A DNA stretch of 33,618 nt from a virus (IMGVR_UViG_2698536590_000004:1-33618), one strand, 5' to 3'. Shown: positions 10,196 through 13,763, counted from the first letter of the stretch. Made by a program: numbers and translations. Notes: generated by a model not told the origin, from the letters alone.

Positions 10196-11587
10196 TTATG
10201 CTTCATGTTGCTTTTTGAGATCGCTTCTAGCATAGCTCCACTCAATAATGTTGTCGGGTCGTTGCTGATCGAAAAGGATACGGGATTCAATACCATTACC
10301 TAAAAAGCTGGTATTCCCATCTACGTAAGAAGCTATCCCTTGTGAACCAACACGAAGAATATTTTCTAATGGCTGCTTTGTTCTTGCTGCATCGCTAAGG
10401 AGATATAAACCCGGGTACGTTTTGTTAGCACGGTGAAAAAAAAGTTCATTGTCAAAACACATGACGATGATTATTTGTCCCGACATGAGATCGGAGAGCA
10501 TTTCAGTTGGCAGATGCAAACTCATAAATGGTCGAGACAAAGGGTCAAAGAATGAATCATTTATATTCACAACAGGGCTTTTTATACCGAGACTATCCAT
10601 CCATCCATTGAAGGCAACAAAGCCCATTTCAGAATCACGGTACATACCTAAGAACAAACATTCATCAATAGTATCAATTGCCCAATTTTTTCCTCCGCGA
10701 ATAATCTCCCACATTTTAACTAAGCGGTGGGTATAAAATTCAGACGGATGATCTATCTCATTGATTTTAACTTTAGACTGATGAAAGTTGTCAAAGCCCT
10801 CGCCAGTATTAATCGCCTCCAGAACATTCATGCCACGAATGATTTGCCTTTTTATGCGATTAAATTGCTTAACATCATTGTCAGGCATATTGTTAATGAA
10901 GTTTTCTTCAAAGTGCGGACATTCTGAGATAACAGAAAATTCAGCAGCTTCATAAAGCTCATTATTCTTTTCACCTGTTTTAACTTCCACGAGCTGGAAG
11001 CCATCCAGTAGATTAAAGGTGACTAAATCTCCCACATGAACAAATGTGCTCATGTCAGAGACAATCGCTACGGAGTGTTTGTCCTGGTTGATAAGATCGG
11101 CTGCGACCATAGAATCAATTATGTTATCTTCTGATAGATTGTCATTGCTTGCATTAATAGGTAAACGCCGCAAACTAGAGTGTTCTTCATCAAGAATGCT
11201 CCAAATTATTGAGTCAATACAACGGCGAAGAATAAGAATTTCAAATTTTTTTAAACTTATTTCATCAATACACTTTTCTTTATTTTCTTTATCCTTGTTT
11301 CGATGGTGCTCTTTTTTTTCAGTTTCCAATCTTTTTATATCTCTCAGCCGAATAATAATCTCAAAAGATATGATTTTTTGTGAGTCTTTCCAATTTTTGA
11401 GACAGGTTTCATACTCTGCAAGAAAATCCTCATCATTGGAAGGTAGTTCTTGAATTGGATTCCCTCCCCTTATCATTTTGGCAAGTGCATGCATTAAAGA
11501 TACATAATGAGGTGATAAAATTGTCCAAAACTTCCTAAACGGTTTGTACTTTTCAAGAAAAGTTGACTCATCAGTATAATTCATCAT
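10196..11587 (-). CDS. Uncharacterised 463-aa protein, partner of the AbiH-like gene; candidate PD-(D/E)xK-type nuclease motif
   Basis: Strongly AT-rich ORF 89 bp downstream of the AbiH-like gene on the same strand; ATG at 11587 with GAGG RBS (track start 11593 is TTG); segment VHVGDLVTFNLLDGFQLVEVKTGE fits a D...ExK signature; no Walker or HTH motif seen. Confidence 0.7.
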   Translation of the reverse strand: MMNYTDESTFLEKYKPFRKFWTILSPHYVSLMHALAKMIRGGNPIQELPSNDEDFLAEYETCLKNWKDSQKIISFEIIIRLRDIKRLETEKKEHHRNKDKENKEKCIDEISLKKFEILILRRCIDSIIWSILDEEHSSLRRLPINASNDNLSEDNIIDSMVAADLINQDKHSVAIVSDMSTFVHVGDLVTFNLLDGFQLVEVKTGEKNNELYEAAEFSVISECPHFEENFINNMPDNDVKQFNRIKRQIIRGMNVLEAINTGEGFDNFHQSKVKINEIDHPSEFYTHRLVKMWEIIRGGKNWAIDTIDECLFLGMYRDSEMGFVAFNGWMDSLGIKSPVVNINDSFFDPLSRPFMSLHLPTEMLSDLMSGQIIIVMCFDNELFFHRANKTYPGLYLLSDAARTKQPLENILRVGSQGIASYVDGNTSFLGNGIESRILFDQQRPDNIIEWSYARSDLKKQHEA

Positions 11588-11676
11588 AACCAAACCTCAT
11601 TCCTCTTATCTATTTTCCTCAAGGTATAAAATACCAGCCTTTTTTACATAATTATAGTTATAATATGAAGTCTCAT

Positions 11677-12546
11677 TCAGATATCTTCATACTGTACGTA
11701 AGAAATATTTGAGCCTCTGACACCATAATCTTCTAAACTGCCTGATTTTTTCTCACCTCTATATAAAGCAATTATCCATCGAGCATTTTCTTGGATACTT
11801 TTATTTATTTCAGTAAAGTATTCACCGTCAACTTCGGCGAGCGAGTGGCCTAAAACGATGACCTCGTCCACATTTTTAAGCGATGAGAAAAAAACGTTTT
11901 CTTCTTTAATTATGTCTTCGCTGGGCTTGAATGTATTACCGAAGTATTCGTTTATTCTGTCGTATGCCTCTGCTATTCTTGTATCTTGATCCGGTCCTAT
12001 ATATGGATTTAGTGACTTTTCCACCCTAAAACTATGACCAAGTATGAGATCGTCATCGTAACTACAATTGCCGTGAATATGTATGATTTGCTCGTCTGGA
12101 ACGGCATAGATCTGCTGCAAGGTATTTGTATAATTAAATGAAAAATAGATGCTTTCTCTTGGTATGGGCGGGATGTATTGCTTAGGATTGTAAGCATCGG
12201 CTATGTTAATCCCTTTAACCCAATCAGCGAATTGCTCCTTCAAACGAGCTGACAGCATTTGTGTGATTTTATTTACTTCATATTGGTAATCGTGATGATA
12301 AGCATCGCTCCAATCATCGGTATTGTATGAAGCCAAAAATATCTCACTGTTTTGAAGGATAAGCTCATAATCAATTTCACCTAAAGCATTTTCTAACTCA
12401 TTCCACTCGTCCCCAGCAGGAATGTATTCTTCTATCGCGTCATATAGATCTTGGTCATTTTTTTCTACATACGACTTAAAGTGCTTGTATCCTGTTGGTA
12501 AGCCATGACGCATGTCAAATCCATTTCCTATTATGTAAAGCCTCAT
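11677..12546 (-). CDS. AbiH-family abortive-infection-like protein
   Basis: 290 aa from ATG at 12546 (AAGGGA RBS); N-terminal MRLYIIGNGFDMRHGLPTGY matches the AbiH-family IIGNGFD signature as I recall it (Pfam AbiH), plus HIHG and VLGHSL...VD..Y motifs; markedly AT-rich. Confidence 0.75.
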   Translation of the reverse strand: MRLYIIGNGFDMRHGLPTGYKHFKSYVEKNDQDLYDAIEEYIPAGDEWNELENALGEIDYELILQNSEIFLASYNTDDWSDAYHHDYQYEVNKITQMLSARLKEQFADWVKGINIADAYNPKQYIPPIPRESIYFSFNYTNTLQQIYAVPDEQIIHIHGNCSYDDDLILGHSFRVEKSLNPYIGPDQDTRIAEAYDRINEYFGNTFKPSEDIIKEENVFFSSLKNVDEVIVLGHSLAEVDGEYFTEINKSIQENARWIIALYRGEKKSGSLEDYGVRGSNISYVQYEDI

Positions 12547-12860
12547 TGTTTTTCCCTTAGTCGAATTGTATAAAAATACTAACATGGCCTGCTCCACGTT
12601 GACTACTATCCCCTCCTTTGAGTAATGCCTTCATCAGATGTAACAACATTTCCGAGCTTCCACAGTTCGCTCAAAGCGGACTAGAAGGTTAGCTTGCGTC
12701 GGACTTGGCGTATTTAAAGAAGTGCTGGTGGAGACTGGTTGTTGTGTTCCATTTCTACAGAACAAAATCACAGAAACTATACCCAATAGTTATATTGAAT
12801 CAATGATGAGACAGCCTCATATTTATCAGGACTGGTGTACGTCCAATACAGGAGGTTGTC

Positions 12861-12950
12861 GTGCTGGTTCTCAAATATGCGCTAGCTATTGCGGCTGTAA
12901 TGGCAATTTATTGTCTTGCTGTTGTTCTTACGGATCGCCTTTCTGATTGA
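12861..12950 (+). CDS. Possible 29-codon hydrophobic peptide ORF (MLVLKYALAIAAVMAIYCLAVVLTDRLSD); speculative
   Basis: GTG start 5 nt after a perfect AGGAGG; single predicted TM helix; not in the ORF track (too short); followed by a 9-bp-stem hairpin CTATCTGCC/GGCAGATAG. Confidence 0.2.
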   Translation: MLVLKYALAIAAVMAIYCLAVVLTDRLSD

Positions 12951-13161
12951 TTTTATATTGGCGAGGTGACGTGAGTTAAGTAGAATTGCTGCGGGTGATT
13001 GAGGCTATCTGCCTCAGGCATGAACACCAAAGGCAGATAGAGAAAAGCCCCAGTTAACATTACGCGTCCTGCAAGACGCTTAACATTAATCTGAGGCTCA
13101 ATCTATGAACAGCAAATCTAGGTTAGCCTCTTACGTGCCGGAAGGCAAGGAGAAGCAGGCT

Positions 13162-13317
13162 ATGAAGCAGCAAAAGGCGATGTTAATCGCCCTGATCGTC
13201 ATCTGTTTAACCGTCATAGTGACGGCACTGGTAACGAGGAAAGACCTCTGCGAGGTACGAATCCGAACCGGCCAGACGGAGGTCGCTGTCTTCACAGCTT
13301 ACGAACCTGAGGAGTAA
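13162..13317 (+). CDS. hok: Hok/Gef-family type I toxin (HokD/RelF-like, 51 aa)
   Basis: MKQQKAMLIALIVICLTVIVTALVTRKDLCEVRIRTGQTEVAVFTAYEPEE matches the Hok family and, as I recall it, E. coli HokD; AAGGAG RBS; in-frame upstream extension to 13105 also open. Confidence 0.85.
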   Translation: MKQQKAMLIALIVICLTVIVTALVTRKDLCEVRIRTGQTEVAVFTAYEPEE

Positions 13318-13386
13318 GAGACTAGGCGGGGGAGAAATCCCTCGCCACCTCTGATGAGTCAGGCATCCTCAATGCACCCGCGCTTA

Positions 13387-13412
13387 ACCCGTTTCGGCGG
13401 GTTTTGTTTTTT
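13387..13412 (+). terminator. Intrinsic terminator after hok
   Basis: ACCCG-tttcgg-CGGGT hairpin followed by TTTGTTTTTT. Confidence 0.5.
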
Positions 13413-13484
13413 CCTGGCATTCTGGTTTACAATTCGCACGCCAGCCTGAACAACTGGCACCTGCTGCGCCAGCAGAGAAAACAG

Positions 13485-13763
13485 ATGGCGCACAAGACCA
13501 AATTTCACAATTCTGATAACTCAGCCGACCCTGCCATCCGGTACGGGCGGCGTTCACACGTCTTTAAAACTGACTGGTACCAGCATGATCCGTGCACTGA
13601 AGAACAGGCCGAATGGCTGATTCAGTGTTATCGCAGGCGCGGACGCGAGGTCAGGAAAGACCTCAGTCTTGACTTACGACACTGGATAATTTCCGTCAGG
13701 CTTCCTTATTCCGAACGCCCACCACGTCCATCCCGCACATTCCAGCAACGCATCTGGAGGTAA
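13485..13763 (+). CDS. Hypothetical basic protein (92 aa from internal ATG)
   Basis: ORF-track start 13404 overlaps the hok terminator, so trimmed to ATG 13485; stop abuts the GGAGG RBS of the next gene. Confidence 0.4.
   Translation: MAHKTKFHNSDNSADPAIRYGRRSHVFKTDWYQHDPCTEEQAEWLIQCYRRRGREVRKDLSLDLRHWIISVRLPYSERPPRPSRTFQQRIWR

Follow-up and report, generated by a model that had tools for sequence, protein, structure and literature searches.

A complete hok/mok/sok locus and an adjacent, probable small membrane-peptide gene in a Rac/lambda-like prophage

Introduction

The closest described relative of the toxin locus considered here is hokW-sokW of the Shiga toxin 2 (Stx2) phage 933W, in which sokW neutralizes HokW in an RNase III- and Hfq-dependent manner (Takada et al. 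2021, PMC8621323). HokW is reported to be 44% identical to Hok of plasmid R1; hokW-sokW speeds lysis after prophage induction and, in contrast to the R1 system, has been proposed to serve as a lysis aid at that stage (PMC8621323). Here, a hok-family toxin gene and a 29-codon open reading frame (ORF) upstream of it were analyzed in a stretch of viral DNA of 33,618 nucleotides (nt) (IMGVR_UViG_2698536590_000004:1-33618; the whole stretch is referred to as the window). The original prediction for this region, made from the sequence, had described an orphan hok gene lacking an adjacent relBE pair, preceded by a short hydrophobic ORF and a hairpin reminiscent of type I toxin peptides. The region is read here as two adjacent and separable units, a complete hok/mok/sok locus and an independent small membrane-peptide gene, with an estimated probability of about 0.72. 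Coordinates of all features are collected in Table 1.

Results

The hok toxin gene and its regulatory elements

The 51-amino-acid (aa) toxin was 100% identical to K-12 HokD (HOKD_ECOLI), the match named in the original prediction, and was assigned to Pfam family PF01848 (HOK_GEF; E = 1.2e-23, 82.9 bits against a cutoff of 22) and to phrog_251 (E = 2.8e-33). The ribosome-binding site (AGGAG, 9 nt upstream) and the downstream terminator ascribed to the gene were both found, and relBE was absent, as stated: RelE and RelB of K-12 gave no tblastn match at E ≤ 10 anywhere in the 33.6 kb of the window. The description of the gene as standing alone did not hold. A mok frame, a hok promoter, a leader, tac and fbi elements, and a sok gene with its promoter (97% identical to sokW) were all present, and mok shared its frame and stop codon with hok in the layout annotated for mokW/hokW of 933W. 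By these elements, the gene described as an orphan is part of a full hok/mok/sok type I locus of the hokW-sokW type, a well-known kind of system, and this part of the region represents biology that is already known, with nothing new in it.

The leader matched Rfam family RF01794 over positions 12993 to 13167 (101.2 bits against a gathering score of 59, E = 1.7e-23, full model, positions 1 to 157). The hok transcript start was placed at G12993 from the position of the promoter, and the Rfam leader model begins at the same nucleotide. Since the match lies on the hok-sense strand, it describes the leader of the hok mRNA. Although named "sok antitoxin," RF01794 in practice models the hok leader from the 5' end to the hok start codon, not the antisense RNA, so that hits to this family need a strand-aware reading. 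Leaders of the RF01794 type were present in 4,283 of 5,426 complete Escherichia coli genomes, at a median of two places and a maximum of nine per genome. A LexA box in the leader was considered and rejected, as by eye CTG and CAG stood 13 to 14 nt apart, not 10.

In the minimum-energy fold of positions 12993 to 13404, nt 1 to 12 were paired with nt 375 to 387 (z = -7.1; 0 of 100 shuffled sequences were as stable). This tac/fbi pairing is the fold-back typical of hok mRNAs. The 9-bp hairpin reported between the 29-codon ORF and hok also exists, but its stem begins 55 nt past the stop codon of that ORF, within the hok mRNA leader; it forms the 5' stem-loop of that mRNA, is not a terminator, and does not belong to the small ORF. 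The spacer is in part an ordinary hok leader, at positions 12993 to 13161; the part upstream of the hok promoter is taken up by an independent small-gene module.

A putative cis-encoded Sok gene with its own promoter was found opposite the mok start, and Sok was complementary to the mok translation start region. Over 146 nt covering the sok promoter and RNA, identity to 933W was 97%, with the promoter hexamers, the 17-nt spacing, and the terminator hairpin unchanged. The promoter-less ("pro-less") mutagenic primers of Takada et al. were aimed at the same sok -10 element (PMC8621323).

The elements of hok/sok regulation were observed in the window, and its course is taken from the established hok/sok model and from 93 to 97% identity to the studied sokW/hokW. 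A stable hok mRNA would be transcribed from its own promoter and held inert by pairing between tac and fbi at its 5' and 3' ends, and translation of Hok would require translation of the overlapping mok frame. Sok, running from 13113 to 13043 on the minus strand, would pair with the mok start region, leading to cleavage by RNase III. If Sok decayed, for example after prophage induction, Hok would enter the inner membrane and harm the cell. Neutralization of Hok toxicity by Sok is known for the 93%-identical hokW-sokW (PMC8621323) and may hold for this copy as well.

Codons 1 to 5 of mok (13105 to 13119, at the Sok 5' end) were the most variable spot of the transcribed hok locus across 177 distinct loci, with a mean column entropy of 0.80 versus 0.17 to 0.31 in the flanking leader and promoter and with at least 10 alleles. 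This variability looks like a diversified Sok recognition end, which would allow several hok/sok copies (up to nine per genome) to coexist without cross-talk.

The 29-codon ORF and its conservation

The AGGAGG motif and the GTG-initiated hydrophobic ORF were located as originally described. The predicted peptide contained one strongly hydrophobic stretch (residues 6 to 24, mean Kyte-Doolittle hydropathy of 2.36 in a 19-residue window). An invariant Tyr-Cys-Leu motif lay in the hydrophobic core, and the peptide carried a short charged tail, M(D/E)RL(S/G)(D/N). Pfam, NCBIfam, PHROGs, and PADLOC assigned the peptide to no family, and in database records it is called no more than a "membrane protein" or "hypothetical protein," E. 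coli B REL606 being one example. Its sequence strings were not found in the literature searched, and no matching peptide sequence occurred in a preprint on small proteins of uropathogenic E. coli; a preprint on the Pas small RNA only cites sok as a neighbor of PasA. Three candidate relationships were rejected. A match to ATP-synthase c was meaningless (16 bits against a cutoff of 116), similarity to Hok gave no HOK_GEF match at E ≤ 0.1, and homology to the membrane anchor at the C terminus of the L0139-type protein of 933W, hinted at by a DNA alignment, gave no alignment with BLASTP.

Homologous loci were compared in a set of several hundred taken from viral contigs using three different anchors, to which metagenome loci were added. 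The ORF proved to be conserved, a point that the original prediction had made a test of its own claim: with an anchor outside the ORF, all 29 codons were intact in 131 of 132 loci, and the remaining locus had lost the whole module. Among metagenome loci, picked by the nine C-terminal residues only, 78 of 80 carried an intact ORF. The Shine-Dalgarno sequence was AGGAGG in 121 of 131 loci and AGGGGG in the other 10. The 33 alleles held 35 distinct single-base variants, with 20 at third codon positions, 19 synonymous, and 15 nonsynonymous; none created a stop codon or placed a polar residue in the helix. Synonymous variants were in excess of the number expected when the same mutation spectrum was re-dealt at random (19 versus 9.6 ± 2.3, P = 5e-5).

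The ORF belongs to an unnamed family with three branches, namely, the 29-aa form found here, a 29-aa copy on the Shigella virulence plasmid (pINV), and a 34-aa paralogue. The pINV copy (pWR501, locus L266, positions 2543 to 2632), upstream of icsP, had an ATG start codon and differed at 17 of 90 bases with the ORF intact, and the hok leader and locus behind it had decayed. Its peptide, MLVLKGTLAIAAVMTIYCLIVVLMERFSD, was encoded on 124 Shigella plasmids, representing all four Shigella species, and on some E. coli plasmids. More widely, the region at 2440 to 2740 of this Shigella flexneri plasmid, approximately 250 to 450 nt upstream of the icsP start codon, derives from the prophage small-gene module. 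Within it, the small ORF and a hok-type promoter (TTGGCG-17-TAGAAT) are both intact, and the hok leader survives as a decayed stub.

The 34-aa paralogue, MSDDISLVMEGALAVIAVVGVYCLVVFLMERLGN (RefSeq WP_001278460.1, "hypothetical protein"), stands immediately before a different hokD locus, and its variants precede roughly a quarter of the hok-anchored viral loci. It shares many identical residues with the 29-aa form, written in different codons (for example, TAT TGT CTT versus TAC TGC CTG). In deep comparisons with the pINV copy and the 34-aa paralogue, the ratio of nonsynonymous to synonymous substitution rates (dN/dS) was 0.20 to 0.26. A start codon (GTG or ATG) was always present, and the ribosome-binding site, length, and frame were conserved across small-ORF loci. 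The cassette of the 34-aa paralogue (locus L267, 1940 to 2150) is bracketed by short direct repeats, AAAACG(G/T)T(T/C)GC, and in loci of the 933W type (L001, 1380 to 1500) the motif occurs once and the cassette is missing, a pattern suggesting that the cassette was inserted or removed by recombination between the repeats.

A putative sigma-70 promoter precedes the ORF. Four upstream lineages, only ~60% identical to each other, all kept TTGAAT, TTGAAG, or TTGCTG, a 17-nt spacer, and CATATT, together with a constant 37 nt between CATATT and the start codon and a ribosome-binding site of the GGAGG type. Hexamers and spacing kept amid such divergence form the pattern expected of a real promoter and translation start. 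The unit (~12790 to 12955) would thus comprise a weak sigma-70 promoter, a leader of ~30 nt, a consensus ribosome-binding site, and the GTG-initiated ORF, whose translated product would be a single-pass inner-membrane peptide acting through its transmembrane helix, presumably without being part of hok regulation. There was no terminator between the small ORF and hok, so the small-ORF transcript probably reads into hok. The small ORF is probably a new, genuine small membrane-protein gene, as judged from these patterns of sequence conservation.

Several observations weigh against this reading. The small-ORF promoter is weak by consensus and fell below the scan threshold, and in ~10 loci (L135, L136, L138, and L143 among them) TTGAAT is replaced by TCTCAT at the equivalent of 12793 to 12811, with loss of the putative -35 hexamer. 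Approximately 20 loci keep only the last six codons of the small ORF, beside a QueH-like insertion, and one locus has the module deleted; with the lost -35 hexamers, these losses indicate that the small gene is dispensable. Within the shallow 29-aa clade, nonsynonymous changes, all of them from one hydrophobic residue to another, were as frequent as synonymous ones, and the consensus differed from the HannyBb allele by five nonsynonymous changes and one synonymous change. Alleles of the HannyBb type are carried by E. coli B strains REL606 and BL21. Many copies are not independent, so that the test at deep divergence rests on three lineages. The NCBI pipeline (PGAP) left the 29-aa form unannotated in all 40 of the matches listed from E. 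coli complete genomes, and no transcript, ribosome-profiling, or proteomic evidence for the small ORF was found in the literature searched. For the neighboring unit, that Sok and Hok are expressed and active in this prophage is deduced from the relatives.

Two details of the degraded loci were recorded. In loci such as L172 and L174, most of the small ORF has given way to a rightward QueH-like gene (of the epoxyqueuosine reductase type, as assessed by eye from its translation), and the remnant, attached to the hok promoter, consists of the last six codons (MDHLSD and stop). The TCTCAT change creates a perfect 8+8 palindrome, TCTCATCA-A-TGATGAGA, and looks like a quasi-palindrome-templated mutation.

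Some of these observations would also fit a frame that is untranslated and is conserved through linkage to the hok block or through a role at the DNA or RNA level, such as an upstream region of the hok promoter. Nucleotide identity is as high in the ORF (>90%) as in the hok block, also at loci where the sequence immediately upstream is ~60% identical, the final six to nine codons persist as remnants joined to the hok promoter after rearrangements, and the missing PGAP annotation points the same way. However, the synonymous excess is specific to the small-ORF frame, the low dN/dS against pINV and the paralogue goes with many synonymous codon swaps, and the start codon, ribosome-binding site, and length are kept throughout. 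The module also persists where hok is absent or decayed, and 933W-type hok promoters work without the small ORF. An untranslated frame is considered quite unlikely.

Resemblance to type I toxins

The original prediction had likened the ORF to type I toxin peptides. In its fullest form, this reading takes hok as an orphan no longer under antisense control and places before it a second peptide gene, type I toxin-like and with a hairpin of its own. The peptide is indeed short and hydrophobic, like TisB or ZorO, and as a small hydrophobic membrane peptide (29 aa, grand average of hydropathy [GRAVY] of 1.59) it has what is expected of such a toxin; moreover, the Hok protein is that of K-12, whose own locus is truly truncated. 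The orphan part of the reading is refuted by the intact mok, leader, tac/fbi pair, and sok gene with promoter described above, and the hairpin belongs to the hok mRNA. The sole antisense promoter-like site (TTAACT-18-TAAAAT, 12979 to 12950, minus strand) loses its -10 hexamer in most alleles, and no direct repeat was found that could give a trans-acting complementary small RNA. A structured mRNA hiding the ribosome-binding site was not found in three alleles folded, which were no more stable than shuffled sequences (z = -0.93, +1.39, and +0.83), and the consensus ribosome-binding site stands behind a short (~30-nt) leader, unlike in tightly repressed type I toxin mRNAs. At a permissive threshold, Rfam returned only the hok leader model and no match for the small ORF. 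A 13-nt imperfect inverted repeat flanking the module (12792 to 12804 and 12946 to 12958) was set aside, as other lineages do not conserve it. As these sequence-level searches gave no conserved antisense promoter, complementary repeat, Rfam match, or stable fold, the ORF was classified as a probable small inner-membrane protein gene and not as a type I toxin gene; the combination of an orphan hok and a second toxin is regarded as very improbable.

Module boundaries, distribution, and the question of a link to Hok

Homology to 933W begins only at ~12973, past the small ORF, and the small ORF is common to four phages (Tritos, Evi, mEp460_ev081, and HannyBb). Breakpoints of homology fell on the left at 12660 to 12669 or near 12810 and on the right at ~12960 (15 loci without hok behind, such as L025) or at the hok terminator. 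These breakpoints bracket a unit, indicating that the small ORF and ~70 nt upstream of it assort independently of both the left neighbor and hok. By its homology boundaries, the small ORF is a separate module of ~170 bp upstream of the hok promoter. The small-gene module was found without hok in the same 15 loci, and hok is found without the module in 933W. A hok-less homologous locus gave no Rfam match.

The 316-nt stretch holding the small ORF was present in 1,735 of the 5,426 complete E. coli genomes (about a third). The family was restricted to Escherichia and Shigella, in that scans of species-representative genomes and metagenomes gave only such copies; a few hits in metagenome-assembled genomes of other genera most likely represent contamination. 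In lambdoid prophages, the family usually lies directly upstream of the hok promoter.

This position leaves room for a functional link. The peptide could be a partner of Hok, as a membrane modulator or antagonist, or could alter hok expression by read-through, many hok loci then having three parts; the 29-aa peptide and its 34-aa paralogue would form a family working with Hok as membrane modulators, immunity factors, or cotranscribed second effectors. Two paralogues saturated at synonymous sites both lie immediately upstream of the hok promoter, an intact family member was present in about half of the hok-anchored viral contig sample (a rough tally), and no terminator separates the two genes. 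On the other hand, hokW-sokW works as a two-part system without the peptide (PMC8621323), the peptide gene occurs without hok in the 15 viral loci and on Shigella pINV, where hok has decayed, and adjacency may reflect only a shared insertion hot spot. Because each unit occurs without the other and hokW-sokW works alone, the link is held to be unlikely, for the pair of paralogues as for the peptide in the window. If it were true, about half of the prophage hok/sok loci would be three-component modules and not the textbook pair of toxin and antisense RNA.

Prophage setting

The window is a Rac/lambda-like prophage, and the two units sit in its early-right region. The left part encodes, in order, an S24 repressor, Cro, a YdaT-like protein, a replication gene, and a DUF977 protein, and a leftward cargo pair encoding a 465-aa protein of unknown function and AbiH lies between the DUF977 gene and the two units. 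To the right of hok follow a small phrog_1212 protein, DUF968, RusA, Ash, ORF6N, and an AraC-type regulator. The cargo pair occupies 10196 to 12546 on the minus strand, and the 465-aa protein, which comes after AbiH, had no Pfam or PADLOC match. At the same position, other phages carry unrelated leftward genes (hypothetical proteins of 433 to 475 aa, an acetyltransferase, and transporter- or regulator-like ORFs), and the site looks like a variable cargo or defense hot spot.

A conserved noncoding stretch of ~130 nt, termed module A, lies between AbiH and the small-gene module. Its left homology edge fell at 12660 to 12669 in 78 of 128 loci, with cargo farther left varying between phages, and it had no Rfam match. 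A minus-strand promoter-like site (TTGATT-16-TATAGT, 12803 to 12776) is directed into it. Downstream of hok, an ORF at 13404 to 13763 on the plus strand matched phrog_1212 (unknown function) over its last 66 residues (13563 to 13763; E = 2.7e-35).

Table 1. Positions of predicted features in the window, counted from its first nucleotide
Feature	Position	Strand	Basis or description
AbiH	11677-12546	-	Pfam, E = 9.5e-69; PADLOC also; left neighbor of the two units
Module A, conserved noncoding	12660-12790	.	Between AbiH and small-gene module; ~130 nt
Putative sigma-70 promoter of small ORF	12795-12823	+	TTGAAT (12795-12800), 17-nt spacer, CATATT (12818-12823); inferred start ~12830
Shine-Dalgarno AGGAGG	12850-12855	+	5 nt before GTG
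29-codon ORF ("B")	12861-12950	+	GTG 12861, TGA 12948-12950; predicted single-pass membrane peptide MLVLKYALAIAAVMAIYCLAVVLTDRLSD
hok promoter	12958-12986	+	TTGGCG-17-TAGAAT; promoter scan; predicted transcript start G12993
hok mRNA	12993-13413	+	tac, first stem-loop, leader, mok/hok, fbi, terminator
tac element, mRNA 5' end	12993-13004	+	Pairs with fbi in fold
hok leader, 169 nt	12993-13161	+	Rfam RF01794
First stem-loop of hok mRNA	13005-13040	+	Stem CTATCTGCC 13005-13013 / GGCAGATAG 13032-13040, 9 bp
Sok antisense RNA, 71 nt	13043-13113	-	Coordinates from 933W sokW annotation; gap-free alignment, 97% identity
mok, 70 codons	13105-13317	+	ORF list; frame and stop common with hok; layout as annotated mokW/hokW of 933W
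sok promoter	13120-13148	-	TTGCCT (13148-13143), 17-nt spacer, TAACCT (13125-13120)
hok toxin, 51 aa	13162-13317	+	PF01848 HOK_GEF; phrog_251; 100% identical to K-12 HokD
fbi element	13367-13379	+	Pairs with tac
Terminator	13386-13413	+	Hairpin 13386-13403 and T-run to 13413; terminator-like, sequence scan

Discussion

The hok part of this region corrects a tempting misreading of a HokD-type gene as an orphan. In many E. coli prophages, HokD, known from K-12 as a truncated and unregulated remnant, is encoded in a hok/sok locus with its full equipment. The useful lead is the small ORF, which represents a conserved and unnamed membrane-peptide family tied physically to a classic toxin-antitoxin locus. 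If translated, it would lend itself readily to small-protein studies and might have a bearing on the use that prophages make of Hok-type toxins. It probably falls within the broad class of small membrane proteins and is in kind no surprise.

Among named proteins, the candidate product is most readily compared with KdpF and PmrR (both 29 aa), MgtS, and AcrZ, all small single-pass inner-membrane proteins of enterobacteria. The likeness lies in size, a single hydrophobic helix, a short charged tail, and being missed by automatic annotation; the predicted peptide differs in having no sequence similarity to any named family and in its prophage or plasmid location. With the type I toxins TisB, ZorO, DinQ, and ShoB it shares a peptide of 26 to 29 hydrophobic residues, here next to another type I system, and it differs in having no detected antitoxin RNA or long structured leader and in its apparently accessible consensus ribosome-binding site.

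For the hok unit, the closest system is hokW-mokW-sokW of Stx2 phage 933W and Sakai prophage Sp5, with the same architecture and ~93% nucleotide identity over 417 nt, a figure that holds for 933W and for the Sakai Stx phages. The sok promoter hexamers, the in-frame overlap of mok and hok, and the lambdoid prophage setting are also those of hokW-sokW of 933W. The window differs from 933W in carrying the HokD protein allele, and the first mok codons, which correspond to the Sok 5' end, differ at seven positions, so that the recognition allele is probably different. In 933W, the 156-aa gene L0139 abuts the hok promoter where the window has the 29-codon ORF.

Compared to hok/sok (parB) of plasmid R1, the window locus has the Hok/Gef domain, the mok-coupled layout, an antisense RNA against the mok start, and the 5'/3' fold-back in common. 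The 44% identity to R1 Hok is that of HokW, the window encoding the HokD allele, and the locus is borne by a prophage and not by a plasmid.

The K-12 Qin copy of hokD (relF), downstream of relBE, shares the identical 51-aa protein, its coding DNA, the 3' untranslated region, and the terminator, as well as downstream neighbors of the DUF968/YdfU type. The relBE-hokD arrangement of Qin-type prophages was not found in the window, where the leader stands in the place that relE takes in K-12. Identity to the relE-hokD region of K-12 MG1655 began 14 nt ahead of the hok ATG and ran on through the terminator, with none upstream. As homology stops at this point, the K-12 hokD gene is a truncated copy, in which leader, mok start, Sok RNA, and hok promoter have been replaced by relE, and the window, which keeps all of them, holds the complete form.

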